Below, in pieces: positions 22,982 to 46,563 of a stretch of 64,000 nt of DNA. The translations under genes and the position numbers were made by a program. The notes beneath the pieces were generated by a model, which saw only the letters and a list, made by a program, of their open reading frames with translations, was not told the origin of the DNA and searched no databases. Numbering within the stretch: position 1 is the stretch's first letter; each line of letters opens with the position of its first letter. Source of the DNA: an uncultured Planctomycetia bacterium (GTDB lineage Bacteria; Planctomycetota; UBA8108); assembly GCA_964392615.1 (NCBI GenBank), contig CAYMRB010000002.1, positions 4,243-68,242 on the forward strand. Reading direction: 5' to 3'.

Positions 22982-23294
22982 GGTCTCGTCTTCGCTGCGG
23001 ACAGGGTGGTAGGGAATCCGACTCTCGACGATAGCAAATCTCGTCTCGCGAGGGAGCCTGCCAGGGGCGGCGTCCGGGGGCAGCGCGAGGTCGCGGCAGA
23101 TCTCCGGCGCGGCCGAGGGGAGGAAAGGGACTGGAAAAGTCCTTTTGGTCCTGCTTCGCCCGTGGCATCTTTGTGTGCTGTCGATACGGACAAAAGATTG
23201 GCCCTCGTCGTGCATTTCCGAGTTCTGGCAACGAAGAGCCCGGCTGGAATGGCCGCCATCGCCGAATCGCCCCTCCTCAACGGGCTGGTAAGCC

Positions 23295-24401
23295 ATGGAA
23301 ATCGAATCACCTGCGGGGACGAGCATCGCCAGGGTCGCGCGGCTGATCGAGGAGGATCTGCTGCGTCGGGATCTTCTGCCGGATCAGCGGTACTTGACCG
23401 CGCAGGAAGCCGGCGAGCGCTTCGGAGTCCACCCGCGCATGGCCAGCCGCGCGATGAACGTCCTCGCGGAACGCCAGCTGTTGGTGCGCCGCCGGGGTTC
23501 CGGCACGATCGTCGGGCCCGGACTGCGCGAGTATCGCAAGTTTCGACTGCGGTGTGTGCACGTGCTGGTCTCGGAGAGTCGCTACCATCGCGGGCTGTCC
23601 GGCATGCACCTGCTGGAGGCAGTGCAGCGCGAGCTGGTGGGCCACGGCGTTCAGTTCAACGTCCTCCCGGCCGCCGACGAGGAGTCGTACGTGGCCGAGC
23701 TGCTTCGCCGGGGCACGGAGGACGGATCGTTGGCCGGACTGATCGTCATCGGGTGTGGACGCGCGACGCAGGAGCTCGTCGACGCCCGCAGGGTGCCGGC
23801 GGTCGTCTTCGGCCACGTGTATCCGATGACGCGAGACCTGCCCTCGGTGGACCTGGACCAGGAGAGTGCGGGGAGACTGCTCGCGCGCTGTGTCCTGGAG
23901 CGGGGGCACCGGCGGCTCGCGGTGATGGCGAACGACGTCTGGCTTCCCGGGGACAACCTGTTCCTTGACGGTGTGCAGGCAGAAGCTGCAGGGCGCGCGA
24001 CGGTGCTCGTGCGAGGACTGCCTCTGGAGGAGAAAGTCCTGCGAAGCGAGTTGGGCGACCTGATGTCGTCACCCGAGCCGCCGACGGCGTTCATCTGCCG
24101 CATGCCGTCGCGGGCGCGAATCGTGCTGGACGCTATTCGAGCGCGTGGCGCCGCCGTGCCGGAGGAGTTCGACGTCGTGTTCGACCATCCGCACGAGAGC
24201 GAGCAGGATACCCAGCTAAGCGACGTCCTGCAGTGCCCTCACGTCTTCTGCGAGGAGACCGAGGAGAGCCAGGCGGCGATCGTGTCGCGCATGTTGCGAG
24301 CGCTCGTCGATGGGGAGCGAATCGACAGCTCCACGATCGAGCTGCCGGTGCGCCTTGTCGTCCCGGATCACCGAACGAATCCGCCTCCGGAGAGGAGATG
24401 A
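23295..24401 (+). CDS. Transcriptional regulator: GntR-type winged-helix N-terminus fused to a LacI/PBP1-like sugar-binding domain
   Basis: wHTH segment YLTAQEAGERFGVHPRMASRAMNVLAERQLLVRRRGSGTIV, followed by a periplasmic-binding-protein-like effector domain (GLIVIGCG, VPAVVFGH, RRLAVMAN). Its stop overlaps the next start (ATGA at 24398-24401). Confidence 0.7.
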   Translation: MEIESPAGTSIARVARLIEEDLLRRDLLPDQRYLTAQEAGERFGVHPRMASRAMNVLAERQLLVRRRGSGTIVGPGLREYRKFRLRCVHVLVSESRYHRGLSGMHLLEAVQRELVGHGVQFNVLPAADEESYVAELLRRGTEDGSLAGLIVIGCGRATQELVDARRVPAVVFGHVYPMTRDLPSVDLDQESAGRLLARCVLERGHRRLAVMANDVWLPGDNLFLDGVQAEAAGRATVLVRGLPLEEKVLRSELGDLMSSPEPPTAFICRMPSRARIVLDAIRARGAAVPEEFDVVFDHPHESEQDTQLSDVLQCPHVFCEETEESQAAIVSRMLRALVDGERIDSSTIELPVRLVVPDHRTNPPPERR

Positions 24402-26953
24402 CACGCAGGACCATGCGCAGCACTTCGTTTGCAACCCTATTGTGGATCGTCGCCGCGTCGGTCGAGGCGCAGCAGCCGCGGGAATCCGCGCCGAACGTCG
24501 TTCTGCTGATGGCGGACGATCTCGGCTACGGCGATGTCGGCTTCACGGGAAACGCGATCGTCCAGACGCCACACCTCGACCGGCTCGCGGCGCGTGGCGT
24601 CCGTCTCGATCGGTTCTACTCGGCCGCGCCGGTGTGCTCTCCGACACGCGCGAGCTGCGTGACGGGGCGCCATCCGTACCGCGTCGGCATTCCGTGGGCG
24701 TTCGCAGGCGCGCTACCCGCGCGCGAGACGACGATCGGCGAGGCGCTTGGCGCGCTCGGCTACCGCACCGCGCACTTCGGAAAGTGGCACCTCGGCCTCC
24801 TGAGCCCGTCGGTGAAGCAGGGCTACGCGCCGGGCGACCCGAGTCCGCAGGCCTACGCCCCGCCTTGGGAGCACGGCTTCGCGGAGTGCTTCAGCGTGCT
24901 CAACAGCATTCCGACCTTCGATCCGTACTACATGCACTCCGGCGAGTTCGGCACCGAGGGCTATCGATTCGTCCTGGACCGTGCCATTCGCGGCGGCGAG
25001 CGCCAGGGCGGATTCGTCTGGCGCGACCGCTTCTGGACCGGACCGGGGACCTTGGTCGACGAGTGGTTGACGGGGCCTGTTCCGGACCTGCTCGTCGATC
25101 GCACGCTCGAGTTGGCGCGCGAGTCGAAGGCCGCCAACCGGCCGTTTCTCGCGTTGGTGTGGTTCTCCACGCCGCACACCCCGGTCGTCGCCGGTCCGAA
25201 GCACCGAGCGCTCTACCCGGATCGATCGATCGAGGAGCAGCACTGGTACGGCTCGATCTCGGCGATGGACGAGGCGATCGGTCGACTCGCGGCGGGGCTC
25301 GAAAAGCTCGACGTCGTGGACGACACGCTTCTATGGTTCTGCAGCGACAACGGACCGACCTGGGTCCACGAGCACGGCACGACCGGTGGTCTGCGCGCCC
25401 GCAAGGGAAGCCTCTACGAAGGTGGGATCCGCGTGCCGGCCCTCGTGCACTGGCCCGCAGGGCTCGAGGGAGGACGGAGCGTCGACGTGCCGATCGTGAC
25501 GAGCGATCTGCTGCCGACCGCCTTGGCCGCCGCCGGATCCGGTCCGCCGCGTCACGTCGAGCTCGACGGAGAGGACGTGCTGCCGATCCTCGCGGGGAAG
25601 AGAAAACAGCGCACGCGGCCGATCGGATTCCAGTCGCCTCGGCTCGAAAGCAAGGCGCGCGACACGAAGGCGTGGATGCAGATCGGCGGCCTGCAGCTGG
25701 CCTGGATCGACGGCGACGAGAAGCTCGTCAGCATGGACGGCGGGAAGAGCTGGCAGCTCTACGATCTTCGCTTCGACCGCGCCGAGCAGAACGATGTGTC
25801 CGCGGAGCGACCGGAGCGCGTGACCGCGATGCGTCAGGCTCTCGAGAGCTGGCGCCGGCGGTGCGCCACGAGCGCGCGGGGCGAGGACGCGGTTCCCGTG
25901 CTCGTCGCGCGCGAGACGGCCGTTGTCGGCGTCGAACGCTCGCCTTCGTGCTACGCGCAGTTTCGTGAGGGCTGCGTCTCCGTGACGAACGCGGGACGCC
26001 TGGTCGTCGTCGCGCAGGGGCGCGAGAAGAGCGCGTGGAGCGATCGATCGGGCCAGGACCTCGTCTGCCGCTTCAGTGACGACGGGGGCGACACGTGGGA
26101 GCCGACCGTGCTCGTGGCCGAGACGGGCGATCACTCGATCTGCCCGAACGCGACCGTCTACGATCGCGAGACCGACACGATTCACGTGCTGTACAACGTG
26201 TTTCTCTGGGACTTCCGGAAGCCCGACTCGCGGCGTCCGATGAAGGGGCGCGAGTGTCGGCAGTTCCAGGTTCGCAGCTCCGACGGGGGCGAGACGTGGT
26301 CGAAGCCTCGCGACATCACCGCGATGCTCGGCAGCGGAGGCTACACGACGGTGTTCGGATCCGGCGAGGGCATTCAGCTGCGTCGCGGATCGCACGCGGG
26401 CCGGCTCGTCGTGCCCGGCGGATTCCAGAATCGATGGGGCAACCGCTCATTCTACAGCGACGATCACGGCGTGACGTGGCGGGTCGGAGAGATCGCGCCC
26501 CGCGATCGCGTCAAGGGTCTCAACGTGCGTCTCGAGAACAAGGTCGCCGAGCTCGCGGACGGCACGCTCGTCCAGAACGTTCGACACACGCCCGAGCGCG
26601 TGCGCGCGTTCTCGAAGGACGGAGGGCAGACGTGGACGCCGCAGGAGGTCGACCGTGGCCTGCCCGCGGTCAGCTGCAACGGCAGCCTGCTGTGCGTTCA
26701 GGACGAGGCGGGGCGCGACGTACTCCTGTGCTCGGTTCCAGCCGGCCCGAGACGCACGCACGGTACGGTCTACGCGAGCACCGATGGTGGGCGCACTTGG
26801 CCGCGACGCGCGATGCTCGTCGAGAGCGAGTTCGCGTACTCGAGCCTCGTCGAGCTGCAGGACGGACGCATCGCGCTCGTCTACGAGGCGCGCAACCACC
26901 GCGATCTGTACGTCCGACGCTTCCGGCCGGACGACGTCTTTGCTGGAGAGTGA
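24398..26953 (+). CDS. Bifunctional fusion: Cys-type sulfatase (N-terminal, about nt 24488-25867) plus BNR/Asp-box sialidase-like beta-propeller (C-terminal, about nt 25898-26950)
   Basis: Signal peptide, then sulfatase blocks NVVLLMADDLGYGD and CSPTRASCVTGRHP (the C-x-P-x-R formylglycine motif), GKWHLG and SDNGP. The C-terminal half has five Asp-boxes (SDDGGDTW, SSDGGETW, SDDHGVTW, SKDGGQTW, STDGGRTW). FREG stands where GH33 enzymes have FRIP. I trimmed the start from 24233 to 24398 (RBS GGAGAGGAG). Confidence 0.8.
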   Translation: MTRRTMRSTSFATLLWIVAASVEAQQPRESAPNVVLLMADDLGYGDVGFTGNAIVQTPHLDRLAARGVRLDRFYSAAPVCSPTRASCVTGRHPYRVGIPWAFAGALPARETTIGEALGALGYRTAHFGKWHLGLLSPSVKQGYAPGDPSPQAYAPPWEHGFAECFSVLNSIPTFDPYYMHSGEFGTEGYRFVLDRAIRGGERQGGFVWRDRFWTGPGTLVDEWLTGPVPDLLVDRTLELARESKAANRPFLALVWFSTPHTPVVAGPKHRALYPDRSIEEQHWYGSISAMDEAIGRLAAGLEKLDVVDDTLLWFCSDNGPTWVHEHGTTGGLRARKGSLYEGGIRVPALVHWPAGLEGGRSVDVPIVTSDLLPTALAAAGSGPPRHVELDGEDVLPILAGKRKQRTRPIGFQSPRLESKARDTKAWMQIGGLQLAWIDGDEKLVSMDGGKSWQLYDLRFDRAEQNDVSAERPERVTAMRQALESWRRRCATSARGEDAVPVLVARETAVVGVERSPSCYAQFREGCVSVTNAGRLVVVAQGREKSAWSDRSGQDLVCRFSDDGGDTWEPTVLVAETGDHSICPNATVYDRETDTIHVLYNVFLWDFRKPDSRRPMKGRECRQFQVRSSDGGETWSKPRDITAMLGSGGYTTVFGSGEGIQLRRGSHAGRLVVPGGFQNRWGNRSFYSDDHGVTWRVGEIAPRDRVKGLNVRLENKVAELADGTLVQNVRHTPERVRAFSKDGGQTWTPQEVDRGLPAVSCNGSLLCVQDEAGRDVLLCSVPAGPRRTHGTVYASTDGGRTWPRRAMLVESEFAYSSLVELQDGRIALVYEARNHRDLYVRRFRPDDVFAGE

Positions 26954-26955
26954 CC

Positions 26956-29853
26956 ATGAATGCGGCCGTTTCTCAGCGGGGGCTCGGATCGCGTCTCCCG
27001 ATCCTCGTAGTCGTCATGGCGCTCCTGACGTGTGGGCTCGGCTGCGAGCGGAGCGGCGTGACCGCGTACGGTCACGGGCTGCTCTGGGATGAGCTGCCGC
27101 CGCTTCCCGACGCGCACGGCTTCGCCGGTCCGTTCGCGGGCGTGGTCGATAGCGATCTGCTGGTCGCGGGCGGGGCGAACTTTCCGGACGGTGTTCCGTG
27201 GCATCTTACCGGCGAGGGCTGGACGTCGCCGAAGCGCTACCACGAACGGATCTTCGTGCTGGAGCAGGAGCGGGCTGCAGCCGGGGGGCCTCCTGCCTGG
27301 CGTGAGTCGACGATTCGACTGCCGCGACCAATCGCGTACGGTGTCAGCGTCGCGGTCCCGGGCGGCCTGCTGCTGATCGGCGGGGAGCGGCAAGATCACC
27401 GCCGTGACGACGAGAAGAGGGAGTACGCGTCGGAGCGGGTGCTATCGGACGAGGTCCTCCTCGTGCGTCGACGACCTGGCGGTAGCGACATCGAGATCGA
27501 GCCGGGATTCCCGCGCCTCCCCTCGCCGATCGCGTTTGCCGGTGGAGCACGGATCGGGAATCACGTCTACATCGTCGGAGGTGATGACGGCGACGGGGCG
27601 ACGCGCAGCTTCTGGAGGCTCGATCTGTCGCAGCGTCCCCTGTCCTCCGCGAAGAACGGAACGAAGAGCGACGACTCGTGGCGATGGGAGTCTCTGCCCG
27701 CATGGCCCGGCCGTCCTCGCGTGCTGCCGGTCGTCGCGGCTCAGAGCGATGGACGCGAGACGTGCCTGTACGTCGTCAGCGGTCGCGAGGTCGTCGACGG
27801 CGAGTTTCGCTTGCACACGGACGCCTACCGATTCGAGCCGAGCCGCGAGCGCTGGAATCGCCTCGCCGACGTGCGCGTAGCGGACGACACGGCACCACGC
27901 TGCGTCATGGGCGGGGCGGCAGCGGCGGTCGGCACGCACGAGATCCTCGTCGTCGGCGGGGCGCGCGGCGATGTTCTCCTGCGACACGCGAACGAGTTGC
28001 CGCGCGAGATCGCGACGGCGGAGAAGGCTGGAGACACGGCCCTCGCTGATCGCCTGCGCGCTGAACGACTCGCGCTCTACGATCGCCACGTCGGCTTCAG
28101 CCGGGATGTCCTGAGCTACAACGCCGTCACCGACCGGTGGAGCCGCGTCGGCCAATTCCCGGCTGGTGAGCGCGTGCCGTCAGGGCCGGCGGTCGACCCT
28201 GGCGAGCGAGTCGCTACGGGCGCGCCGGTGACGACCGTAGCGGTGCATTGGGAAGGCGCCGTCGTCGTGCCGAGCGGCGAGATCAGTCCCGGCGTCCGCA
28301 CGCCGAGGGTCTTCTCCGTCGCCGTCGATCGCGGCGCGGTCTCTTTTGGCGTCGCGAACTGGACCGTGCTGGCGTTGTATCTCGCGGTCCTCGTCTGGAT
28401 GGGCTTCTACTTCTCGAGACGCGAACGCTCGACTGAGGACTTCTTCACCGCCGGAGGACGCATACCGTGGTGGGCGGCCGGACTGAGCATCTTCGGGACG
28501 ATGCTCTCTGCGATCACCTACTTGTCGATTCCCGCGCGGGCGTACGGAACGAACTGGAGCTGGCTGATCCAGAACTTCGGCATCCTGGCCGTCGCGCCAA
28601 TCGTCGCTTTTCTGTTCTTGCCGTTCTTCCGCAAGCTGCGCGTTACGAGTGCCTACGAGTACCTCGAAGCGCGATTCAACGTCTCCGTGAGGCTGTTCGG
28701 GAGCGCGTCGTTCATCCTCTTCCAGTTCGGTCGCATGGGCATCGTCGTCCTGCTGCCAGCCCTGGCACTCGCGGCGGTCACCGGCATCGACATCCTGTTC
28801 TGCATCGTCGTGATGGGAGTCCTCAGCACGCTCTACACCGTCCTCGGAGGCATCGAGGCCGTCGTATGGACCGACGTGTTGCAGGTCGTCGTGCTCATCG
28901 GCGGTGCGATCGCGGCAGTCGTCATGATCCTCGTCAACGTAGGCGACGGTCTGCCGGAGCTGTTGGCCGCGGCGTGGGAGGCGGGAAAGGTCGATCTCGT
29001 CACGGAGTTCCACTCGCACGACCTGAGCTGGGCGAGGGACGGCGTGCTCGTCATCCTGCTCGGCGCGGTGTTCAACTCGATCTTGCCCTATATCAGCGAT
29101 CAGGCGGTGATTCAGCGCTACATGACGGTGGCCGACGAGCGACAGGCACGTCGCGCGATCTGGACCAACGGCATTCTCGCCGTGCCGGCGTCTCTCCTGT
29201 TCTTCGGCGTCGGAACCGCGCTCTGGGTGTTCTACCGCGCACGTCCGGAAGCGTTGATGCCGCTGGAGAAGCCCGATCAGATCTTTCCGTGGTTCATCGC
29301 CCTCGAGATGCCCGCCGGCGTCGCCGGTCTGGTGATCGCGGGCGTCTTCGCCGCGTCGATGTCCAGTCTCGACTCCAGCCTGCATTCGATCGCGACGGCG
29401 GTGACCACCGACTTCTATCGTCGCTTCCGACCCGATAGCTCCGAGGCGGCGCGACTCCGCTTCGCGCGCGTGCTGACGGTCTTCCTGGGTGTCATCGGGA
29501 CGCTGTCGGCCATCTTGATGGCGACGATGGAGATCAAGTACCTGTGGGACGTGTTCCTGTCCATCACCGGCTTGTTGCTCGGGACGCTGGGGGGCTTGTT
29601 CACCGTGGGGATCCTGTTACGTCGCTGCAGCTCGATCCACGCCTGGTTCGGTATCGTCGCGAGTGTCGCCGTTCTGTACCTGGCGCGGCATCACAGCGAC
29701 CTGCACTTCCTGCTCAACGGAGTGCTGTCGCTCGGAACCTGTTTCATCGTGGCGCTTCTGTCGAGCTACGCGCTGCCGACGCGCGGTGGAGACGCCGAGC
29801 TGACGGTCCGCTCGTTGGTACCGGGCCGCGATGAGACGAGAGAGTCCGGGTAG
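26956..29853 (+). CDS. Fusion of a NanM-like sialic acid mutarotase (Kelch beta-propeller, about nt 27067-28323) with a sodium:solute symporter (SSS family, about nt 28339-29850)
   Basis: The N-terminal half matches E. coli NanM/YjhT blocks as I recall them: GFAGPFAGVVDSDLLVAGGANF, IAYGVSVAVPGGLLLIGGE and PSGEISPGVRTPRV. The C-terminal half has about 13 TM helices, opening with the SSS block TEDFFTAGGRIPWWAAGLSIFGTMLSAITYLSIPA. I trimmed the start from 26095 to 26956. Confidence 0.8.
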   Translation: MNAAVSQRGLGSRLPILVVVMALLTCGLGCERSGVTAYGHGLLWDELPPLPDAHGFAGPFAGVVDSDLLVAGGANFPDGVPWHLTGEGWTSPKRYHERIFVLEQERAAAGGPPAWRESTIRLPRPIAYGVSVAVPGGLLLIGGERQDHRRDDEKREYASERVLSDEVLLVRRRPGGSDIEIEPGFPRLPSPIAFAGGARIGNHVYIVGGDDGDGATRSFWRLDLSQRPLSSAKNGTKSDDSWRWESLPAWPGRPRVLPVVAAQSDGRETCLYVVSGREVVDGEFRLHTDAYRFEPSRERWNRLADVRVADDTAPRCVMGGAAAAVGTHEILVVGGARGDVLLRHANELPREIATAEKAGDTALADRLRAERLALYDRHVGFSRDVLSYNAVTDRWSRVGQFPAGERVPSGPAVDPGERVATGAPVTTVAVHWEGAVVVPSGEISPGVRTPRVFSVAVDRGAVSFGVANWTVLALYLAVLVWMGFYFSRRERSTEDFFTAGGRIPWWAAGLSIFGTMLSAITYLSIPARAYGTNWSWLIQNFGILAVAPIVAFLFLPFFRKLRVTSAYEYLEARFNVSVRLFGSASFILFQFGRMGIVVLLPALALAAVTGIDILFCIVVMGVLSTLYTVLGGIEAVVWTDVLQVVVLIGGAIAAVVMILVNVGDGLPELLAAAWEAGKVDLVTEFHSHDLSWARDGVLVILLGAVFNSILPYISDQAVIQRYMTVADERQARRAIWTNGILAVPASLLFFGVGTALWVFYRARPEALMPLEKPDQIFPWFIALEMPAGVAGLVIAGVFAASMSSLDSSLHSIATAVTTDFYRRFRPDSSEAARLRFARVLTVFLGVIGTLSAILMATMEIKYLWDVFLSITGLLLGTLGGLFTVGILLRRCSSIHAWFGIVASVAVLYLARHHSDLHFLLNGVLSLGTCFIVALLSSYALPTRGGDAELTVRSLVPGRDETRESG

Positions 29854-29866: not shown

Positions 29867-32824
29867 ATGCTCAGAATCGGAACGGTCGTCGCGGCTCTCG
29901 TACTTCTTTGCGGGCCGACTTTGCCGGTTGCGGCGGGCCCGCCGAATGTCCTGCTGATCGTCTCGGAGGACAACGGCCCGGAGCTCGGCTGCTACGGCGA
30001 TCCCTACGCGCGTACGCCGATCCTCGACCAGCTCGCCGCCGAGGGCTGTCGCTTCGAACGGGCGTTCGTGCCGTACTCGGTGTGCAGTCCGTCGCGCGCG
30101 TGCTTCCTGACCGGGCTCTATCCGCATCAGAACGGGCACCTGGGGCTGGCGACGCATCGCTTCGCGATGTACCGAGCGTTCGCGTCGATGCCGAGCTTGC
30201 TGAAGAAGGCCGGCTATCGCACGGGGCTCATCGGCAAGCTCCACGTCAACCCGGAGTCGGCGTTTCCATTCGACTTCCGAGCCATCCGGTCCGCGAACTT
30301 CAACAAGCGCAACGTCGTCGAGTATGCGAAGGCGGCGTCCGAGTTCTTCCGCGCCTCGGACGCGCCGTTCTTCCTGTCGATCAACTATCCCGACGCGCAC
30401 TTTCCGCTCTTGCGCCAGCAGTTCGGCGTGCCGGCGACTCCGATCCGCGCCGAGAGCGTGCGGCCGCTGCCCTGGGTCGGCGCCGACTCCGAACGGCTGA
30501 GGAGGTTCACCGCCGACTACTACAACTGTCTGGCGCGTCTCGACGTCGGCGTCGGACTCTTGCTCGACGAGCTCGAGCGATGCGGCAAGGCGGCCGACAC
30601 CCTCGTCATCTACATCGGCGATCACGGCGCGCAGTTCTCGCGTGGCAAGTGCTCTGTCTACGAGGCGGGGTTGCGCATTCCGATGATCGTGCGCTGGCCG
30701 GGACGCGCGCTGCCCGGTCGCGTGCGACGGGAGCTCGTCTCGACAGTCGACCTGCTGCCGACCGTGCTCGAGGCGACGGACCGTCCGGTCCCTGAGACGT
30801 TGTCCGGTCGCTCTCTCGTTCCCCTCCTGCGTGGAGAGATGCCGAGCTGGCGCGAGCACATCTTCGCGGTGACGACCGGGGCAGCGCCCTCGATCTCGTT
30901 CGTGCAGCTCTCCGTGCGTGACGATCGCTACAAACTGATCTCGTCGCCCCAGGCCGGCCGGGAGAGCCTGTTCGCCGCGGCGTACGCGAGCCGCTTCAAC
31001 GTCCACTTCGCGGCCGGAACGTCGGCCGAGGAGATTCGCGCCGCGTCGCCGGTCGTTCAGGACGCGTATCGACGATTTCTCCATCCGCCGCGGTACGAGC
31101 TCTACGACCTGCACGACGATCCGCACGAGTTCCTCGACCTCGCGCCCGACTCGAAGCATGCGGCCGTGAAGAAGCGTCTGATCGCGACGCTCGAACGCTG
31201 GCAGAACGAGACCCGCGACCCGTTCGGTGACCCCGAGATGCTCGAGCTCTTCGTGCGCGAACAGGACGCTGCGCGGTCGACCGACTATCGACGAAAGAAG
31301 GGCTTCCGCTGGCAGCACATCGATCGATTCGCCGCGTGGCGCGACGGGCGGTCCGACACTTCCACGCTGCGGCTCGGCCGTCCGTTCGGCAGCCATATGG
31401 TCGTGCAACGCGACAAGCCGATTGTCATTTGGGGGACGGCGGACGCCGGTCGCGAGTTGAGAGTACGGTTCGGCGTTCACGCCGCCCGCACGACCGCGGG
31501 CGCCGACGGAAGCTGGCGTGTCAAGCTCGACGCGCTGCCGGCGAGCTCGACGCCGCGTGAGCTCGTCGTCAGGTCTGGTGCCGAGGTCATGCGTCTCGAG
31601 GACGTTCTCGTCGGTGACGTCTGGCTCTGCGCGGGCCAGTCGAACATGCGTTTCACCGTGCGGCAGTCCGCAGGTGCCGCCGAGGCGATCGCTGCAGCGG
31701 CCGATCCCGAACTCCGCCTGCTGGACTATGCGGGGAGCATCTACCCGTCGCGACGCAAGTACCCGTTGGACGTCCTGCGACGCGTGACCGCGGAGAGCTA
31801 CTACTCGACCCGCGGGTGGCAGCGTTGCTCACCCGACACGGTTCCGACGTTCTCGGCCGTCGCGTACACCTTCGGCGCGGCGCTGCGCCGCGAGCTCGGC
31901 GTGCCGATCGGGCTCGTGCACAATGCGGTCGGCGGCGTGCCGATGGAGGCGTACATTCCGGCCGAGTTCCTCGCGGGCGATCCACAGCTCGCGCCGCTCC
32001 TCGTGCACTGGTACGAGAACCCCGAGTATCCCGCGTGGTGTCGACAGCGCGGTGCCTTCAATCTGAGCGCGTGGCTCGCCGCGCCGGAGCCCCCCGCACC
32101 GCATCACCCGTTCGAGCCCGGATTCCTGTTCGATGCCGGCATGCGGCCGTTCGCGGCCTTTCCGCTGCGCGGCTTCACGTGGTATCAGGGCGAGTCGAAC
32201 GCGACGGAAGACGGCGCTCGCGGCGCACCGGTGGCTGCCGCGGTGAACCGCCGCAAGTTGACGGCGCTCATCGAGAGCTGGCGTCGTGCGTGGGACGATC
32301 CGGAACTGCCGTTCCTGTTCGCTCAGCTGCCGGGGCTCGACCGTCCGTGGACGGTCTTCCGGGAGGTGCAGGCGCAGGTCGCGCGCGACACGAAGAACGT
32401 CCACATGGCGGTGACCATCGACGTCGGCCATCCGACGAACGTGCATCCGCGTCGCAAGAAGCCGGTGGGGGAGCGCCTCGCGCGTCTTGCCCTCGCCCAT
32501 GTTCACGGCAAGGACATCGTCGCCGGCGGACCCGTGCTTCGGGCGCACGAAACCGTCGGCGCAGAGATCCGGGTGTCGTTCGACCAGGTCGGAGGAGGCC
32601 TGGCGTCACGGGACGGCCAGGCGTTGCGCGAGTTCACGATCGCGGGTGACGATCGAGTCTTCCACCCAGCGACCGCGGCGATTCGCGGCGACCGCGTCGT
32701 GGTGTCGAGCGCGAAGGTGCAGCGCCCCGTCGCGGTGCGCTACGCGTGGTGCAGCGATCCGGACGTCAACCTCGTCAATGCCGAGCAGCTGCCGGCCGCA
32801 CCGTTTCGGACGGACCCGTGGTAG
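29867..32824 (+). CDS. Bifunctional fusion: Cys-type sulfatase (SGSH-like, about nt 29939-31240) plus sialate O-acetylesterase (SASA/DUF303, about nt 31364-32821)
   Basis: Sulfatase blocks NVLLIVSEDNGPELGCYG, CSPSRACFLTGLYPHQNG and YIGDHG. Esterase blocks FGSHMVVQRDKPIVIWG, VWLCAGQSNM, HNAVGGVPMEAYIP and FTWYQGESNA. The start is taken at MLRIGT (29867, preceded by GAGGGGGGA); the track start at 29831 is also possible. Confidence 0.8.
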   Translation: MLRIGTVVAALVLLCGPTLPVAAGPPNVLLIVSEDNGPELGCYGDPYARTPILDQLAAEGCRFERAFVPYSVCSPSRACFLTGLYPHQNGHLGLATHRFAMYRAFASMPSLLKKAGYRTGLIGKLHVNPESAFPFDFRAIRSANFNKRNVVEYAKAASEFFRASDAPFFLSINYPDAHFPLLRQQFGVPATPIRAESVRPLPWVGADSERLRRFTADYYNCLARLDVGVGLLLDELERCGKAADTLVIYIGDHGAQFSRGKCSVYEAGLRIPMIVRWPGRALPGRVRRELVSTVDLLPTVLEATDRPVPETLSGRSLVPLLRGEMPSWREHIFAVTTGAAPSISFVQLSVRDDRYKLISSPQAGRESLFAAAYASRFNVHFAAGTSAEEIRAASPVVQDAYRRFLHPPRYELYDLHDDPHEFLDLAPDSKHAAVKKRLIATLERWQNETRDPFGDPEMLELFVREQDAARSTDYRRKKGFRWQHIDRFAAWRDGRSDTSTLRLGRPFGSHMVVQRDKPIVIWGTADAGRELRVRFGVHAARTTAGADGSWRVKLDALPASSTPRELVVRSGAEVMRLEDVLVGDVWLCAGQSNMRFTVRQSAGAAEAIAAAADPELRLLDYAGSIYPSRRKYPLDVLRRVTAESYYSTRGWQRCSPDTVPTFSAVAYTFGAALRRELGVPIGLVHNAVGGVPMEAYIPAEFLAGDPQLAPLLVHWYENPEYPAWCRQRGAFNLSAWLAAPEPPAPHHPFEPGFLFDAGMRPFAAFPLRGFTWYQGESNATEDGARGAPVAAAVNRRKLTALIESWRRAWDDPELPFLFAQLPGLDRPWTVFREVQAQVARDTKNVHMAVTIDVGHPTNVHPRRKKPVGERLARLALAHVHGKDIVAGGPVLRAHETVGAEIRVSFDQVGGGLASRDGQALREFTIAGDDRVFHPATAAIRGDRVVVSSAKVQRPVAVRYAWCSDPDVNLVNAEQLPAAPFRTDPW

Positions 32825-34332: not shown

Positions 34333-35838
34333 ATGCGGAGACGGTGCGTCATGTCGAAGTGGCTGTGGATTCCCCTCTGTCTCGCGATGACGGCTGCGAC
34401 GTGCTCGCCGGCGCCGGTGGCTGCACAGGAGGAGCGCGGGGAGGCGACCTATCGCCGCTTCACGAATCGCGAGGGACGCACGTTGCGGGCGCGTATCGTG
34501 AGTGTCGACGGCGACCGCGTGACCGTCGAACGGCGATCCGGGCGGCGATCGACGTATCGCATCGCGGTCTTCTCCGCGGCCGACCAGGCCTACATTCGCG
34601 AGTTTGCCGGTCGGGGCAAGCCCGCGTCGAAGACCTCGAAGTCTGCCGGGTGGTCTCGGTTCCGCGGCCCCGAGGGCATGGGGGTCTCCGGCGCGACCGA
34701 CCTTCCTCTCGAGTGGGACGCGGAGACCAACATCGCATGGCAGACTCCGCTTCCCGGCGCCGGCGCGTCGAGTCCGATCACGTACGGCGATCGCGTCTAC
34801 ATCACGTGCTACACCGGGTTCTTCGTTCCCGGTCAATCGGGAGGGAGCCAGGAGGATCTGAAGAGACACCTTCTCGCTGTGCGCCTCGCCGACGGCGAGA
34901 TCATCTGGAACAAGGCGGTGCCGGCCAAGCTGCCCGAGGAGGAGCGCATTCGCGACCACGGCTTCGCGGCCAGCTCGGTCATGGTGGACGCCAATCGCGT
35001 GTATGCGTTCTTCGGCAAGTCGGGAGTCATCGCGTTCGACCACGAAGGCGAGCAGCTCTGGCTCGCCGATGTGGGCTCGAGCACGAGCGGCTGGGGCTCG
35101 GCCGCGTCTCCGATCTTGCACGGCGGTTTGCTGTTCGTCAACGCGAGTGTCGAGAGCCAGTCGCTGGTGGCACTCGACCCCCGCACGGGCGACGAGAAGT
35201 GGCGGGCCGAGGGCATCCGCGAATCGTGGAACACGCCGCTCGTGGTCGACGCCAAGTCGGGACGCGAAGAGCTCATTATCGCCAGGGCGGGCCACGTGTT
35301 GGCCTTCGCACCGCAGACCGGCGAACAGCTGTGGTCGTGCAAGACGGACATCAAATGGTACATGGTTCCCAGTGCGGTCGCCTCTGACGGAATCGTGTAC
35401 TGCATCGGCGGTCGCTCGGGAACGGCCGCGCTCGCGGTGCGCACCGGCGGCAGCGGCGACGTGACCGACACGCATCGACTCTGGACGAGCAATAAGGGCT
35501 CGAATGTCTCGTCGCCGGTCTTCCTCGACGGGCACCTCTACTGGGCGCACGAGCAGCAAGGTATCGCGTACTGCGCCAAGGCGGATTCGGGCGAGATCGT
35601 GTACCAGGAGCGGCTGCCCCGCATCGGCCAGGTCTATACTTCGACCTTGCTCGCAGCCGGCCGGCTGTACTATGTCGGCCGCCGCGGCAGGACGGTCGTC
35701 CTGGCCGCCAAGCCCGAGTACGAGGAGCTCGCGGTCAACGACCTGTCCGACCGCAGCCTCTTCAACGGCAGCCCCGCGGTCGCGGGCAAGCACTTGCTGC
35801 TGCGATCCGACAAGTATCTGTACTGCATCGGCGAGTAG
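34333..35838 (+). CDS. Secreted PQQ-like (BamB-like) beta-propeller repeat protein with an N-terminal SHD1-like domain
   Basis: Signal peptide MSKWLWIPLCLAMTAATCSPAPVAAQ. SHD1-like segment FTNREGRTLRARIVSVDGDRVTVERRSGRRSTYRIAVFSAADQAYI. Propeller blades follow with AWQTPLPGAGASSPITYGDRVYI, W....G.. patterns and SSPVFLDGHLYW. I trimmed the start from 33925. Confidence 0.7.
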   Translation: MRRRCVMSKWLWIPLCLAMTAATCSPAPVAAQEERGEATYRRFTNREGRTLRARIVSVDGDRVTVERRSGRRSTYRIAVFSAADQAYIREFAGRGKPASKTSKSAGWSRFRGPEGMGVSGATDLPLEWDAETNIAWQTPLPGAGASSPITYGDRVYITCYTGFFVPGQSGGSQEDLKRHLLAVRLADGEIIWNKAVPAKLPEEERIRDHGFAASSVMVDANRVYAFFGKSGVIAFDHEGEQLWLADVGSSTSGWGSAASPILHGGLLFVNASVESQSLVALDPRTGDEKWRAEGIRESWNTPLVVDAKSGREELIIARAGHVLAFAPQTGEQLWSCKTDIKWYMVPSAVASDGIVYCIGGRSGTAALAVRTGGSGDVTDTHRLWTSNKGSNVSSPVFLDGHLYWAHEQQGIAYCAKADSGEIVYQERLPRIGQVYTSTLLAAGRLYYVGRRGRTVVLAAKPEYEELAVNDLSDRSLFNGSPAVAGKHLLLRSDKYLYCIGE

Positions 35839-35839
35839 G

Positions 35840-38326
35840 TCAGCAGTCAGCGTTGGTCGGCGTCGGCGGAGGACCGCCCATGAAGAGGAAGCCGAGCAGC
35901 GCGATCGCGTCGCTCACGTCGAGCGCTCCGTCGTGATTCGTGTCGGCGGCGTCGGCGCAGGCGATCGGTTCGCCGCCGTCGAAGAGCGCGAGAAGCACGA
36001 AGACCGCGTCGGAGATGTCGACCGCTCCGTCGCCGTTCCCGTCCCCGCGCAGGGCCGTCGCGACGGGCGGTGACCACGCTCCGGTCGTGTCGTACCGCAC
36101 GTGGCGGATGTCGACTCGATAACCGTCTCCGAACGATCCTCGTGTGTAGTCGCCGAAGAGCAGGCGAGGGTCGTCTCGCGTCGAGTTGTAGCCCGCTCCA
36201 GCGGAGGGAGTCAGTCGAATGCCGTCGCGCCAGACGTGGTAGGCGCCAGCGGCTCTGACGTGGGCGACGCGATAGTCGTGGAACGCACCGTCCTCGTTGT
36301 CGCCATGCTCGGCCTCGAACGTCGTCGAGCGAGTCGCTCGAGCGTGGATCTCGACGAGGATCAGATCGTCACCCGTTCCGAGCCATAGAGCGAAGCCCGC
36401 GGCGATGTCGTCGAAGCGCAGGCGGATCTCGACGGTCCAATCGCCGCCGTTCGCCGTGTTCCACGTCGTCGCGCCACCATCCGCTGTCGACGCCGTGCCG
36501 TTGAGCACCGCGTTGCCGGTGTCGGTCGTGTTGACGAGGCGCAGCGAGCCGTCGGCGTTCCGCGATAGCTCCACTCCGCCGTCGTCGGACCAGCCGTTCC
36601 GGTAGCTCGTGCCGTCCCAGATCGCGCCGGCGTCGAACTGACGTGTGAACGTCGCCGAGTCCCTCAGGGCGAGCATCGTGCCGTCACCGCGTGCCTCGAC
36701 GTCCATGCCCAGCGCACGCGCGATCTCGCGAGCGATGTGACGCTCGCCGGCACCGTTCGGGTGGACGTCGTCGTAGGTCAACAAGTCGGCGTCGGTGCCG
36801 TCCGTCACCTCGACGTGCAGGACGGCCGAAGTCGCCGTCGACCACTCGGCGACAGCAGTCGCGAGGAGCGCGTTGTACGCATCGATTCTGTCGTTGAGCG
36901 CCGGAAAGGCGCGGTGGCCCGAGCCGACGTACGGCAGCGATGTCAGGTAGATCGTGCAGTGCGGGTTCGCGTCTTGGAGCTGCGACGTCATTGTTCGGAC
37001 GTCCGCGAGCACCTGGTTCGGGAGGACCTCGACGATGTCGTTCGTGCCGATCATCACGACGGCCGTGTCCGGCGTGTACGTCGTGCCGATGTTGCCCGTG
37101 TCGCTCGCGGAGGGGTCGGGGTAGGGGACCCAATTCCCCGCCGTGTCGACCTCGTACTGCGCGGTCTGGCCGGTCCAGTTCCGCAACGTTCCCTCGCCGC
37201 GGTTGTTGCCGCGCCGGCCGGATGGCAGTGGCAGCCGGCCCGATTCCCAGTAGGCGCGCCAGCCCCAGTGACCATCGTGGACGTTCGAGAACGCCCGCCC
37301 GCGGTAGTCGGGAGTCGACACGGCTCCGCGCGCATACGCGCCGGTCACCGAGCCGACGAACGTCCACGCAGCGCCATGATCCGCGAGGTGCTTGAAGAGC
37401 TCGTACCGATAGCTCGGGTGCCCGGCGCCTCCCTGCGTGATCGAATCGCCGATCACGACGAGGTCGCCGTAATCGCGATCGACGACGCCGGCATCGATCA
37501 ATGCCCATGCGAATCGCTGTCCGACGACCCGCTTCGCTTCCTTGTCGAAGTGGAGGTCGTCGTGCAGTCGCGACCGGAGATCGAGATTGTCGACATAGGT
37601 GATGGTCGGATCGGTTGCGGCCAGGGCCGATTGGCGGGAGCGGACGAGGTCCCGCGTCGCGCCGGCGGCGGCGATGCCCCCGATGACGACGTGCATGCCC
37701 GTCGCTCGCGGTAGATCGGCTCGCAGGTTCGCCGCCAGCGCGGCAAGACGGTCGCCGGCGAGAGAGGCTTCGGAGGCGCTATCGCTCTCGCCCTGAAGAT
37801 ACAGGCAGCCGACGATCTCGAACGTGTGTCCGTCCGCGATCAACGCGGCCGTCGCGCGCTCTACCGTCGCGATGATCTCGTCGTACATGTGGCCGCCCGT
37901 CGACCGCGACCAGTGTGCGTTGCCGCCGCCGCCGCGACTGACCTTGATGATGCCGAAGTCGCGCACTCCGGACCGGTACAGCGTGCGCGCACAGCCGAAC
38001 TCGGGGCCCCAATGCGTCGCGCTGCCGGGATAGAAACCTCCCTGCTGCTCGCGCAACGTCGTGAACGCGCCGCCAGAGTCACCGATCGTCGTCGACGCGT
38101 TCGCGACGTTGCGCCAGAAGAACCAGACCTTGGCGTCCACCGGATCGACTCCGGGTGACGGATCGGGCTGGTTCGGCTCGTTTGTCGTCCCGAGGGAGTT
38201 CGACTGTCCGGTCAGGAGGAACAGGCGGTAGTGCTCGGCGCGGGCGAGCCGGACAGGCGTCGCAACGAGCGCGAGGGCAGCGAGGACGACGCCGACGGCG
38301 CGAGTGGTGCAGCGCGAAGCGTTCAT
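35840..38326 (-). CDS. Four-part secreted protein: SASA/DUF303-like esterase, SGNH/GDSL hydrolase, a divergent copy of the repeat module, and a dockerin-like tail
   Basis: aa 33-280: LLTGQSNSLG ... YLQGESDS (sialate O-acetylesterase-like). aa 286-540: VVIGDSITQGG ... MIGTNDI ... DDVHPN (SGNH blocks I, III and V). aa 556-754: WTVEIRLRF, ALWLGTGDDLILVEI, EHGDNEDGAFHDYRVAH, YHVWRDGIRL, VRYDTTGAWSPP. aa 759-828: dockerin-like tail. Confidence 0.75.
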   Translation of the reverse strand: MNASRCTTRAVGVVLAALALVATPVRLARAEHYRLFLLTGQSNSLGTTNEPNQPDPSPGVDPVDAKVWFFWRNVANASTTIGDSGGAFTTLREQQGGFYPGSATHWGPEFGCARTLYRSGVRDFGIIKVSRGGGGNAHWSRSTGGHMYDEIIATVERATAALIADGHTFEIVGCLYLQGESDSASEASLAGDRLAALAANLRADLPRATGMHVVIGGIAAAGATRDLVRSRQSALAATDPTITYVDNLDLRSRLHDDLHFDKEAKRVVGQRFAWALIDAGVVDRDYGDLVVIGDSITQGGAGHPSYRYELFKHLADHGAAWTFVGSVTGAYARGAVSTPDYRGRAFSNVHDGHWGWRAYWESGRLPLPSGRRGNNRGEGTLRNWTGQTAQYEVDTAGNWVPYPDPSASDTGNIGTTYTPDTAVVMIGTNDIVEVLPNQVLADVRTMTSQLQDANPHCTIYLTSLPYVGSGHRAFPALNDRIDAYNALLATAVAEWSTATSAVLHVEVTDGTDADLLTYDDVHPNGAGERHIAREIARALGMDVEARGDGTMLALRDSATFTRQFDAGAIWDGTSYRNGWSDDGGVELSRNADGSLRLVNTTDTGNAVLNGTASTADGGATTWNTANGGDWTVEIRLRFDDIAAGFALWLGTGDDLILVEIHARATRSTTFEAEHGDNEDGAFHDYRVAHVRAAGAYHVWRDGIRLTPSAGAGYNSTRDDPRLLFGDYTRGSFGDGYRVDIRHVRYDTTGAWSPPVATALRGDGNGDGAVDISDAVFVLLALFDGGEPIACADAADTNHDGALDVSDAIALLGFLFMGGPPPTPTNADC
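35843..36052 (-). other. Dockerin-like double EF-hand module (C-terminus of the multi-esterase)
   Basis: RGDGNGDGAVDISDAVFVLLALFDGGEPIACADAADTNHDGALDVSDAIALLGFLFMGGPPPTPTNADC. Confidence 0.75.
36065..36661 (-). repeat. Divergent tenth copy of the ~200-aa repeat module (lacks the CC pair)
   Basis: It has the same block order as the copies at 46.6-55.8 kb (see the finding), but with lower identity. Confidence 0.55.
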
Positions 38327-38345: not shown

Positions 38346-41300
38346 TCAGCGTGTGGATTGAGTCGGGAGAAGGTCGCTGAAGGGCAGCTTGATCAAGGTC
38401 ATCGACCTGTACCCACTGCTCTCGTAGAGACACAGCAGGCTCTTCTCGTCTGCCGACACTTGCAGCGCGGAGTAGGCGAACGGGCCGTGAATGACTCTCA
38501 CGACGTGCCATGTCTTGCCGTTGTCCCTCGACACCGCGATCTGTCCGTTCTTGCGGCCGGCATTGGACGGGAACGACGCCCACAAGCCCCACCTGCCGTC
38601 CGGCTGGATCGGCCCCTTGATGACGCTGCCCATGCAGGCCACAGAGGGCAGGCCACGGTCGACGTCGAACGCGCTCCACGTCTCCCCGCCGTCGTGGCTG
38701 ATCGCCTTCTTGCGGAACAGGTCGCCGCCCTGGTTTCGAGCGATGAGCACGAGATCGCCGTTCGACGCCTCGACCACCTGGCATTCGTTGGGAAAGCCCT
38801 TACCACTCGCATCGGCAAGCGGCTCGGTTCGCTTCCAGGTGCTCCCGTCGTCATCGCTGTGTGCCACGACGACTTGCCACTGGCGCGAGCGCTTGCCGTT
38901 CTTGATGACCGGCAGCGTTCCCCACAGTCCCGTGACGATGCGGCCTTCGTGTGGGCCTCTCGTCAACTGGATCATCGCGCCCGGCGTGTTGGCATTCAGG
39001 AGATGAGGCGGCTTGACCTGGCGGCTGATGTCGACTGGCTTCGACCACGTCTTGCCGTCGTCGTCGCTGTGACAGACGAATGTCAGGACGTTGGCCTTTG
39101 GATCGTCGTAACCGAGGTTGGCCATCTTGATCCAGCCGGCGTCGCGAGCGTGCCGACCGTACGGGAAGCGAGCAAACATCAGCAGGATGCGCCCGCACCG
39201 TAGCTGGACGGTCAACGGGTCGTTGATCGAATTCATGCCGTCTTCGTGGGCTACGATCTCGTCGCTCCACGACTTGCCGCCATTCGTGCTGCGCTTGAGA
39301 ACGATGTCGTTTTGCGCGTGATCGTGAAGACCCAGTCGCCGCTCCGCGAATGCGAGGATGGTGCCTTTCTTCGTCACGAGCAGCGACGGGATGCGGTAGC
39401 CGTATTTCGTCGCGTTTCTCGCATGGCCTTCGCGAGGAGCGCTTTCAGGGAGGTTCCGTTGCTCGAAGATGATTCGGGCGTCGTTCGGCGCCACGAGGTC
39501 GCGCAACGGAATGCGTTGGAATACGAGGTGCGCCTGGCTGCCTTCGTAGAGGATGCCGACCGTGTCCTCGTCGACCATCGTCATGCAGGAGTACCCGGCG
39601 CCGAGGCCCTCATCCATTAGCAGTTGATGAGTCTCCGGCCACGTCATGCCGCGATCGCGCGATGCCTTGATCGTGATGTGATGGCGTCCGCGGACGCTGT
39701 TCGGATTCGAGAAGAGGAGCCAGCCGCCCGCCTCCTTGCGGAGTTCGCCATCGACGTCGATCAAGCTCGCCATGCACGCGCGGGGTTCGATGAGAGCGCG
39801 TTCGGACGTCGCGTGCTTCTGCCATGTCGTTCCCATATCGCGGGTCGTCATCACGACGCGCGCGGACTTGCGATTGTAGCGGCAGTTGAGCATCAGCACG
39901 CCCGGCTCGATCTCCACGACCTGCGACTCCGTCGTGTCATCGAACGCACCCGTCCCGACGCGCCACGTCTCGCCGTGATCCTTCGAGTAGATGATCGTCG
40001 AATGGGGCAGGCGCTTCTTTGCGGGCGGATCCTGATACTGAGCGGGGAAGACGATCGTGCCGTCGCGCATCGTGATCCCCTTGCCGGGGCCCTGGAGGAT
40101 GAAGCACCACGCGGGGTCCTTGATCTGCCGGGTGATGTTGATCGGCTTCGACCAGGTGATGCCGTCGTCGTCGCTGCGCACCAGCATCAGCTGACCCGTC
40201 TCCTCCGGCTTCAAGCCCGGGCCGGAGCCGCGCCAGGAGCGGTTGCCGTGGCTCCACGTCGCCGCCACCCAGATCGTGCCCGTGCCGCGGTCCACGAGCA
40301 CGGCCGGGTCGCCGATGCCGTCGTAGTGCCACTTCCGGTCGCCACCCATGTCCATGACGACTCGCATCGGCTCCCAGGTTCGCCCTCCATCCGTCGATCG
40401 CGACATGCCGACGTCGATGTCTCCTGGCAGATCGCCGCCGCCGCGCCTGCGGCAGTCGTAGACCGCGATCAGCGTCCCGGCGTTCGTCGTCGCGAGGCCC
40501 GGAATGCGATACGTGTGGACACCCTGATCACCGCCGTTGCGGAGCGCGACGCCCAGTCGGTTCGCGGGGCCGGATGCTGCGACCGGTCGGATCGTCTTGC
40601 CGTTCGAGAGTCCGACCGACACGACGGCTGCATCGACGACGTGATCGATGTTCGCACCGGCACGCAGCCGGAACCCGACCCAGAACCGATTCGCGCCGCT
40701 GCGCAGTTCCTGCTCGCCGCGAAAGGCGAGCGATCCCTTCGGCGCCTGGGGCTTGCCGAAAACCGTCGCGCCGGCGAACACGTTCGCGGTACGCGTGCGC
40801 CAGGAGCCGGAGCCCGTGAAGTACACCGTGACCGACTCGACGTCGGCCAAGTCGGTCGTGCCGCGCGTCGAGACCTCGATCGACGTGACCTTCAACGGAT
40901 CGAGGGCACCCGCGGCCTCGATCGTCAAGCCCGTGACCGGGTTCCCCGGCAGGCCGATGAGAACCGGTGTGACCGACCGAGCGGCCGTCGCCGAGACGAC
41001 CTTCATCGGCACCGGCCTCTCGAGGCGCACATCGTCGATCAGGAGGCCGGATTTCTGCGGGCTGGTGCAGAGGAAGCGCAGCTTTTCGATTCCTGCGTCG
41101 ACGGGTACGGCCACCTCGGTCAGGAAGCCGCCGACGCGAATCGTGCGGCTGCCGTCGTATAGTGTCCTCCACTCATCGTGACGCAGCCCCTCGATGCGGA
41201 ATGCGAACGGCTTGCGGGCCGTCCAGCGCTCGGCCCAGAAGGAGAGGCGATACGAGACGCCGGGCTTGACGGACGGCACGAGCTCGACCGAGCGATCGGC

Positions 41301-46511: not shown

Positions 46512-46563
46512 ACGAACGATGTCGGCGCGCAGCGCCACTCGACGGATTGAAGGGTCTGAGAGG

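Follow-up and report, generated by a model that had tools for sequence, protein, structure and literature searches.

A putatively secreted fusion of an S1 sulfatase and a CE20 esterase in a sialic-acid locus of an uncultured planctomycete

The fusion gene and its two domains

The gene analysed here lies on the plus strand of a 64,000-nt stretch of DNA (the window; G+C 64–69%) from an uncultured Planctomycetia bacterium (contig CAYMRB010000002.1) and encodes a protein of 985 residues in which a sulfatase of family S1 is joined to an esterase of family CE20 (SASA domain). An earlier, model-made reading of the DNA (the original prediction) had proposed that a sulfatase is welded here to a sialate O-acetylesterase, and that the substrate carries both sulfate and O-acetyl groups on or next to sialic acid. 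The features of the gene, all on the plus strand, are the following.

29867..32824, plus strand: whole gene, sulfatase–CE20 esterase fusion (985 residues; stop codon included in the coordinates)
29867..29938, plus strand: signal-peptide-like N-terminus MLRIGTVVAALVLLCGPTLPVAAG (residues 1–24; presumed cleavage site)
29939..31342, plus strand: S1 formylglycine-dependent sulfatase domain, S1_8/SGSH-like (residues 25–492)
30083..30097, plus strand: formylglycine motif C73-S-P-S-R77, placed by alignment with relatives, SGSH and S1_8A
31343..31372, plus strand: short interdomain linker (about residues 493–502)
31373..32821, plus strand: CE20/SASA esterase domain lacking the ancillary (X448) domain (residues 503–985)
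31634..31648, plus strand: SGNH block I motif GQSNM, with nucleophile Ser592
32186..32200, plus strand: SGNH block III motif QGESN, with oxyanion-hole Asn778
32438..32449, plus strand: SGNH block V, N858-V-H860-P, catalytic His kept and Asn where many CE20 enzymes have Asp

The open reading frame (ORF) runs from 29831, or from the ATG at 29867, to 32824 without an in-frame stop. The gene callers' start is the ATG at 29867, which yields the 985 residues and has the Shine-Dalgarno-like, purine-rich GAGGGGGGAG immediately 5' of it. The original prediction had described one 985-residue frame and had named nt 31240–31360 as the place where an overlooked frameshift or stop might split it. Neither was found: around the suspected junction (nt 31169–31438) the G+C content at third codon positions (GC3) is 0.77–0.93 in the same frame throughout, and the remaining two frames are interrupted by stops at 31167, 31179, 31228 and 31458. 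Three independent metagenome contigs, on which the gene has the same neighbours, encode the identical protein; two of these are identical in DNA and the third has 3 nt differences, all synonymous, which excludes an assembly or frameshift artefact. One could still argue that the fusion is the product of a missed frameshift or stop, or of a chimeric assembly of two adjacent genes, since neighbours that overlap by 4 nt, of the kind found in a Planctomycetaceae locus (L017, see below), could be merged by an assembly error. This is highly improbable in view of the recurrence of the identical protein on three contigs (on one despite the nucleotide differences), of the continuous coding signal with stops in the alternative frames, and of a linker that lacks the signal peptide expected at the start of a separate esterase gene. 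In addition, two other contigs encode a homologue of 54–55% identity (P0001) in which the domains follow in the same order. As far as sequence data go, the artefact explanation is refuted and the fusion stands.

Assignment of both domains by profile hidden Markov models, as the original prediction had suggested, was unambiguous: the protein exceeds the Pfam cut-offs for Sulfatase (PF00884; 158.1 bits versus 25, residues 26–305), SGSH_C (77 bits versus 29) and SASA (PF03629; 54.5 bits versus 24.8). The motifs quoted beforehand were all recovered, CSPSR at residue 73, FGSHMVV at 507, GQSNM at 590 and QGESN at 774. The sulfatase half is closed by the natural C-terminal motif of the family, GFRWQH (residues 479–484). 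Besides the formylglycine motif, the catalytic and metal-binding residues D35, K124, H126, H178, D252, H253 and K261 were located; in an alignment with twelve relatives (A1) this set is invariant or nearly so, and it aligns with the catalytic residues of SGSH and S1_8A. By profile score and catalytic residues, the N-terminal half is thus a member of the S1 formylglycine-dependent sulfatases. No FGE gene was recognised among the window ORFs scanned.

The best match of the sulfatase half among PDB sequences is human SGSH (4MHX, E 1.6e-54); the S1_8A enzyme aligns over its full length, end to end (E 2.4e-39), and an S1_11 enzyme (7P24) matches about as well as S1_8A by sequence. The active-site pattern is GDHG...RGK (D252, H253, K261) in the window protein, GDHG...RDK in S1_8A and SGR following SDNG in SGSH (SDNG...SGR). 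An identity as sulfamidase (EC 3.10.1.1) was ruled out, because the protein has DH...K instead of the DN...R of SGSH. The designation "SGSH-like" in the original prediction therefore holds at the level of the family but not at the active site: the domain is SGSH-like in lineage, yet its DH...K, as in the O-sulfatase S1_8A, leads one to expect an O-sulfatase and not a sulfamidase. The characterised S1_8 enzymes are exo-acting, and all have as substrate a hexo- or pentopyranose sulfated at position 2 (GlcNS, Gal-2S or Xyl-2S; PMC12549532).

In the esterase half, SGNH block II is represented by VGG (689–690) in addition to blocks I, III and V listed above, and with these four blocks and the profile score the domain is, by sequence, a CE20/SASA esterase. 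In the AlphaFold2 model it has the layout beta-sandwich, SGNH core, second beta-sandwich, with strands at 512–590 and 890–971 around the alpha/beta core. The original prediction had called for a catalytic Ser, Asp and His; Ser592 and His860 are present, whereas the third position of the triad is occupied by Asn858 (N-V-H) and not by Asp. Asn at the Asp position is tolerated in CE20 enzymes (PMC12313940), and among the closest CE20 homologues the block-V-like motif matches have 74 N versus 44 D. N-V-H-P was considered as a hallmark of the fused esterases and rejected, as it is the majority state in stand-alone close homologues too.

The best PDB sequence matches of the esterase half are the xylan/xyloglucan CE20 enzymes 9H4U (E 2e-80), 7KMM and 9EGA (range to 1e-71), and the mammalian sialate esterase SIAE follows with E 2e-20, 24% identity and a TM score of 0.75. 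The three former enzymes contain an ancillary domain that is missing from the window protein: their alignments run from position 211 directly to 253 of the esterase half while the targets skip about 190 residues. In CE20 enzymes this domain contributes to the substrate cleft and to a water-mediated triad, and the eukaryotic sialic-acid esterases, which lack it, have been described as Ser-His dyad enzymes (PMC12313940). The absence of the ancillary domain thus gives the window esterase an SIAE-like domain plan, despite the modest sequence similarity. One CE20 clade has been predicted to act on sialate (PMC13450560). A sialate specificity of the present esterase would follow from its genomic context and not from the nearest characterised homologues: association with sialidase, transporter and catabolic genes was found in the window and in six loci of other organisms (L059, L063, L064, L012, L019 and L021).

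The AlphaFold2 model, built with 26 sequences as input, has a mean predicted local distance difference test score (pLDDT) of 86.9 and a predicted template modelling score (pTM) of 0.62. The signal-peptide-like region is modelled with a helix at residues 2–14 and low pLDDT at 16–22; outside this region values below 50 occur only at 496–498, in the linker, and at 781–785. The model is one of two well-folded modules with a flexible linker between them, and the linker takes the place of the signal peptide that stand-alone CE20 genes bear. In Foldseek comparisons the N-terminal half matched SGSH (TM 0.75), then S1_8A and then S1_8B; the C-terminal half matched the CE20 esterase 7KMM (TM 0.85) and mammalian SIAE (TM about 0.75). 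Judged from their conserved residues, both enzymes are complete and probably active.

Sialic-acid genes around the fusion

The neighbourhood of the gene contains the following features.

23295..24401, plus strand: GntR helix-turn-helix regulator with a periplasmic-binding fold, first gene of the plus-strand row
24413..26953, plus strand: second fusion, sulfatase with GH33-type BNR_2 sialidase, one ORF, two genes upstream of the sulfatase–esterase gene
27016..29853, plus strand: NanM sialate mutarotase fused to a SiaT-like sodium/sialic-acid symporter (SSF), 945 aa
32885..34150, plus strand: 421-aa BNR_2 (GH33-like) protein, divergent (best E 1e-6 to solved sialidases)
34351..35838, plus strand: PQQ_2 (BamB-like) beta-propeller protein, conserved in a Victivallales locus (L012)
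35840..38326, minus strand: 828-aa SASA + GDSL double esterase (Pfam)
38346..41690, minus strand: 1114-aa GH33 exo-alpha-sialidase, BNR_assoc_N and two BNR_2 modules
41542..42762, minus strand: N-acylglucosamine 2-epimerase (AGE), converting ManNAc to GlcNAc
42759..44933, minus strand: third sulfatase of the locus, start codon uncertain
44467–45585, minus strand: URO-D-family gene, with weak matches to MtaA/CmuA methyltransferases
45810..46511, plus strand: GntR/FCD regulator of the NanR-type family
59334..60263, plus strand: DHDPS-family protein, best NCBIfam match N-acetylneuraminate lyase but below the trusted cut-off; 13 kb past the GntR/FCD gene

The fusion gene begins 13 nt after the stop of the NanM-symporter gene and is separated by 60 nt from the downstream BNR_2 gene. 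The symporter half matches the Proteus mirabilis SiaT structure 5NV9 with E 3e-108, and the 1114-aa protein matches solved GH33 sialidases with E 1e-130 to 1e-139. Since a SiaT-type transporter, GH33, AGE and a NanA-like lyase occur together, the region is a sialic-acid harvesting locus.

The sulfatase-sialidase fusion that had been noted two genes upstream is borne out by Sulfatase and BNR_2 domains within one ORF. The claim that the two sulfatase fusions are independent cases also held: the two sulfatase domains share only 25% identity and differ in their nearest PDB relatives, the upstream one belonging to another S1 subfamily (nearest to 7STT and to S1_16/S1_19). At 25% identity, a recent duplication of the two fused sulfatases within the operon was rejected. 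A direct comparison of the fused CE20 domain with the neighbouring 828-aa SASA + GDSL esterase yielded zero detectable similarity; the latter has almost no PDB relatives.

Several side observations concern the neighbouring genes. Fusions of NanM to the symporter are common across Bacteroidota, Verrucomicrobiota and Planctomycetota, under no annotation other than "sodium/solute symporter", and NanM is also found fused to BNR_2 (P0423, P0424, P0458 and P0459). The URO-D-family gene recurs by sulfatase and CE20 genes in several loci unrelated to each other, in the window (44467–45585, minus strand) and in L004 (13566–15605), L012 (6586–7623) and L013 (about 15803–16411), and two copies lie directly behind the gene for P0001; as a guess, it might serve to remove O-methyl groups from sialic acids. 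The PQQ_2 propeller gene adjoins esterase genes both in the window and in the Victivallales locus L012 (9538–10941, minus strand). Further out, three huge successive ORFs (1619, 1196 and 1479 aa) occupy 46372–59239 on the plus strand; the first two have no Pfam match and the third has Lamin-tail, CHB_HEX_C and CotH kinase matches. The "hydrazine synthase alpha middle domain" (HZS_alpha) is found in two large proteins (3–3152 and 17944–20910, both minus strand) and an FG-GAP repeat protein is encoded at 21059–23326 (minus strand), so that exported HZS_alpha and FG-GAP proteins flank the sialic-acid locus. A GH10 xylanase-family gene (4718–6661, minus strand) and genes for a sugar ABC transporter (12098–16923, plus strand; binding protein, ATPase and two permeases) lie upstream, with an FGGY kinase and dehydrogenases nearby, in what is seemingly a separate sugar-utilisation locus.

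Relatives, domain orders and origin of the fusion

A search of 5.8 billion proteins returned many in which Sulfatase and SASA occur together, and public databases label these just "sulfatase-like hydrolase/transferase". Within alignment A1, the order sulfatase>esterase is found only in the window protein and P0001; the remaining members are mostly esterase>sulfatase or sialidase-esterase-sulfatase. To describe the architectures, a census was taken of the 120 best matches, with the window's own domains used as queries. Sixty-four of the 120 pair this sulfatase type with GH33 and/or CE20, in 9 domain orders. The counts are given below (S, this sulfatase type).

Sulfatase without recognised fusion partner: 49
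GH33>CE20>S: 15
GH33>S: 14
CE20>S: 12
S>GH33: 10
Other sulfatase>S: 7
S>GH33>S: 4
S>CE20>S: 3
S>CE20: 2 (P0001 and P0058), to which the window protein adds a third
S>GH33>CE20: 1
CE20>S>GH33: 1

When 1.84 billion cluster representatives were scanned exhaustively with HMMER, a sulfatase joined to CE20 was seen in at least 17 clusters (50% identity), in further orders, and in all at least 10 domain orders of this sulfatase type with CE20 and/or GH33 were seen in Planctomycetota, Verrucomicrobiota and Victivallales. In a neighbour-joining tree of the sulfatase domains, which has no support values, proteins of different architecture are intermixed; the nearest neighbours of the window domain there are stand-alone and S>GH33 proteins, and P0001 lies elsewhere. 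This interspersion of orders argues for repeated and independent fusion events. An apparent SGL-NanM-sulfatase fusion (P0259; L061, 844–3771) was dropped, as its long-read contig has 1.96x coverage and the ORF was probably merged through an error; a dedicated search of the 5.8 billion proteins gave no second NanM>sulfatase example.

Most of the CE20 homologues closest to the window esterase either stand alone, with a length of about 510 aa, or are CE20+GDSL proteins of Verrucomicrobiota, and the sulfatase fusion is a minority among them. The idea of an exclusive clade of fused CE20 domains is weakened thereby, as stand-alone and CE20+GDSL proteins (50–59% identity) are closer than most fused ones. 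The closest CE20 relative (P0121 in L058; 63% identity, with an SGSH_C remnant) was left uncounted because it comes from a 5x long-read contig and its sulfatase region is apparently frame-broken. Tandem CE20/SASA esterase modules make up P0248, P0249, P0254 and P0258, of about 1000 aa each.

Within the GTDB representative set, the nearest relatives are from Planctomyces/Planctomycetaceae metagenome-assembled genomes (MAGs), at 61–65% identity. In three of these MAGs (L006, L007 and L010) the gene for a stand-alone sulfatase of this type (493 aa) stands immediately before that of a 1638–1687-aa protein with the order other sulfatase>CE20>GH33 (by Pfam in L007 and by a scan with the window domains in all three). 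In L017 (7033–9321) the genes for a 494-aa sulfatase and a CE20 esterase share an ATGA overlap, and the esterase opens with a signal peptide of its own, which begins MKYLFAFLMTAIAVC. A tblastn match spans both genes, and L017 had therefore been considered as another sulfatase>esterase fusion; this was rejected since the ORFs show two genes. The arrangement likely represents the pre-fusion state of the window gene, in which case the fusion would have arisen by the joining of two adjacent, translationally coupled genes with loss of the signal peptide of the esterase.

The combination of these activities with sialic-acid genes recurs elsewhere. A Victivallales MAG (L012) has the sulfatase and CE20 unfused in one nan-type locus, together with double GH33, NanA-like, URO-D-like and PQQ genes and an SSF fragment. 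The cultured Blastopirellula sp. JC732 (L059) encodes a 1670-aa GH33>CE20>sulfatase protein, followed by DHDPS (NanA), NanM-SSF, AGE and a regulator, and no further glycosidase family was noted in the gene calls of the 10 kb on each side; the sulfatase of this operon thus seems to serve the release of sialic acid itself. A triple fusion of GH33, CE20 and sulfatase adjoins DHDPS in L063. In L064, CE20>sulfatase and GH33+sulfatase fusions lie 8 kb apart around a GntR/FCD regulator, mirroring the window. The co-occurrence of the two fusion types that had been proposed as a check was accordingly found within 8 kb in L064, and as triple fusions next to NanA in L059 and L063. In other phyla, too, the closest stand-alone CE20 genes belong to nan clusters, namely L019 (Bacteroidetes) and L021 (Pelomonas aquatica).

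Proposed function, alternatives and known systems

Taken together, the data support the original prediction to the extent that computation allows, and make it likely that the product of the gene is a secreted protein with two enzymes, which clear away O-acetyl and O-sulfate groups that block the release of sialic acid. In this scheme, in which export, activity, sequence of steps and substrate are all inferred, the CE20 esterase would strip O-acetyl groups from sialic acid. The sulfatase would strip a sulfate ester from that terminal epitope, be it on the sialic acid or on the neighbouring sugar. The locus sialidases of family GH33 could then free N-acetylneuraminic acid (Neu5Ac) or N-glycolylneuraminic acid (Neu5Gc), which would be imported by NanM-SiaT and catabolised by the NanA-like lyase and the AGE epimerase. 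Joining the enzymes would keep both de-decorating activities close together and in fixed stoichiometry on a doubly blocked substrate. Sialic acids with both sulfate and O-acetyl groups occur naturally, for example in sea-urchin gametes (PMC13634767).

A number of observations weigh against this proposal. The nearest characterised esterases act on xylan or xyloglucan and have far better E values than SIAE, and no known sialoglycan sulfate corresponds to the ring position 2 of the S1_8 substrates. Three different sulfatases at the locus fit a multiply sulfated glycan better than a single sulfate on sialic acid. The trees are neighbour-joining trees without support values, and the pTM of the model (0.62) does not fix the interdomain geometry. 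Finally, Planctomycetota are rich in sulfatase and GH33 genes; with such abundance, adjacency by itself is weak evidence and it is the fusions that carry the weight.

The sulfatase might more specifically be a sialate O-sulfatase, cutting 8-O- or 9-O-sulfate off bound or released sialic acid and so acting on sulfate as the fused esterase acts on O-acetyl. The minimal nan operon of JC732 speaks for this, as its only secreted enzyme is the sialidase-esterase-sulfatase fusion, and so do the fusion partners, whose substrate is sialic acid itself. The S1_8 enzymes are of the exo-acting pocket type and the terminal residue of a sialoglycan is sialic acid; sulfated, and also sulfated and O-acetylated, sialic acids are present in echinoderms and vertebrates, and the activity still needs an enzyme, since according to a 2023 review no sulfatase from microbes that acts on such sialic acids had been reported (PMC10017367). 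The known S1_8 specificities, on the other hand, concern ring position 2 and not the glycerol side chain, and the locus in the window holds three sulfatase types. The pointer to free monosaccharide as substrate, the NanM>sulfatase protein, is an unconfirmed singleton from a contig with 1.96x coverage. Sulfate on galactose, N-acetylgalactosamine or N-acetylglucosamine beside sialic acid is moreover far commoner in known glycans than sulfate on sialic acid. We regard a sialate O-sulfatase as a tentative possibility, less probable than the broader proposal that leaves the sulfated sugar of the epitope open.

An incidental position of the gene in the sialic-acid locus, with a sulfated and acetylated non-sialoglycan of the algal xylan, fucoidan or carrageenan type as the true substrate, appears unlikely. 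The nearest characterised CE20 enzymes do deacetylate xylan or xyloglucan, lambda-carrageenan is the substrate of the nearest S1_8 enzymes from bacteria, there is a GH10 gene 23 kb upstream, and the homologue P0001 has no sialidase within 10 kb. Against these stand the SiaT-type and GH33-like genes that flank the gene with gaps of 13 nt and 60 nt, the recurrent fusion of the same sulfatase and CE20 types to GH33 in single polypeptides, the lack in the fused CE20 of the ancillary domain that lines the cleft of the xylan/xyloglucan enzymes, and the location of the closest stand-alone CE20 genes within nan clusters. Slightly less probable again is that only one of the two domains is an active enzyme and the other just a binding module, for instance with the sulfatase as an anchor on sulfated glycans that guides the esterase. 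Carbohydrate-active proteins are known to contain binding modules that derive from enzymes but have no activity, and esterase block V has Asn instead of the canonical Asp; yet the catalytic and metal-binding residues of the sulfatase, including the Cys that becomes formylglycine, are all conserved, as are the Ser, His and oxyanion-hole residues of the esterase, and Asn is normal in active CE20 enzymes and the majority state in the clade.

If the sulfatase proves to be a sialate O-sulfatase, the fusions would act as complete "unmasking" machines for sialic acids that bear sulfate as well as O-acetyl groups, with an activity that is absent, for any organism, from the literature searched, whose coverage leaves out most subscription journals. 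No description of sulfatase-CE20 or sulfatase-GH33 fusions was found in this literature, and a search of it for "sialate sulfatase", "sialic acid sulfatase" and similar terms gave no paper in which one of them occurs. According to the 2023 review, a microbial sulfatase acting on sulfated sialic acid has yet to be reported (PMC10017367), although 8-O- and 9-O-sulfated sialic acids exist (PMC13634767) and sialic-acid sulfation is present in echinoderms and reported to be widespread in vertebrates. The family described here, a distinct sulfatase lineage joined to both enzyme types that act on sialic acid and found in operons devoted to sialic acid only, provides a short list of candidate genes for the desulfation of sialic acid or sialoglycans, one of them in the cultured Blastopirellula sp. 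JC732. Synthetic sulfated sialic-acid standards are already available. The candidates are directly testable, and the open question of which enzyme desulfates sialoglycans or sialic acid becomes a direct experiment. Should the sulfate sit on the adjacent sugar instead, the family would still define a new sulfatase specificity. Either outcome would show how marine and environmental bacteria of the Planctomycetes-Verrucomicrobia-Chlamydiae (PVC) group overcome two chemical blocks that shield sialoglycans from sialidases, and such enzymes would be useful tools in the analysis of modified sialic acids.

Multi-enzyme glycan-degrading proteins with a sulfatase are already known. In the alpha-L-rhamnosidase/sulfatase with a GH78 domain (PDB 6HR5), which was among the PDB matches of the sulfatase half and comes from an ulvan utilisation locus in Formosa agariphila, an S1 sulfatase is likewise linked to another glycan-degrading enzyme; this precedent differs from the window protein in partner domain, sulfatase subfamily and substrate, and does not belong to a combinatorial family of domain orders. 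What appears undescribed in the literature searched is the present pairing, the combinatorial family and the implied specificity of the sulfatase. SGSH (4MHX) and the Pseudoalteromonas distincta enzymes S1_8A, S1_8B and S1_8C (9BB9, 9BBD/9BEF and 9BBA, respectively) share the fold and the formylglycine machinery with the window sulfatase, which is about 25–30% identical to them, is fused to an esterase and occurs in a sialic-acid context, in contrast to the heparan sulfate or carrageenan context of the former.

For the esterase half, Fl8CE20_II (9H4U), PpCE20_II (9EGA) and XacXaeA (7KMM) have the GQSNM, GESN and (D/N)xH blocks and the flanking beta-sandwiches in common with the window protein. 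These enzymes act on xylan or xyloglucan and carry an ancillary domain of about 190 residues in the SGNH core, where the window protein has about 40 residues. Mammalian SIAE (8F9O–8F9R) follows the same plan as the window esterase, a CE20 enzyme of about 490 residues without the ancillary domain, and presumably acts on the same class of substrate; it has been described as having a Ser-His dyad held by a backbone carbonyl and, unlike the window protein, it is unfused. A like logic, deacetylation before the action of sialidase or uptake, is known for Escherichia coli NanS, Bacteroides fragilis EstA and Tannerella forsythia NanS (PMC10017367). The architectures of NanS and EstA are GDSL/SGNH with or without SASA, none of them with a sulfatase, and it is the neighbouring 828-aa double esterase, more than the fused CE20 domain, that resembles these enzymes.

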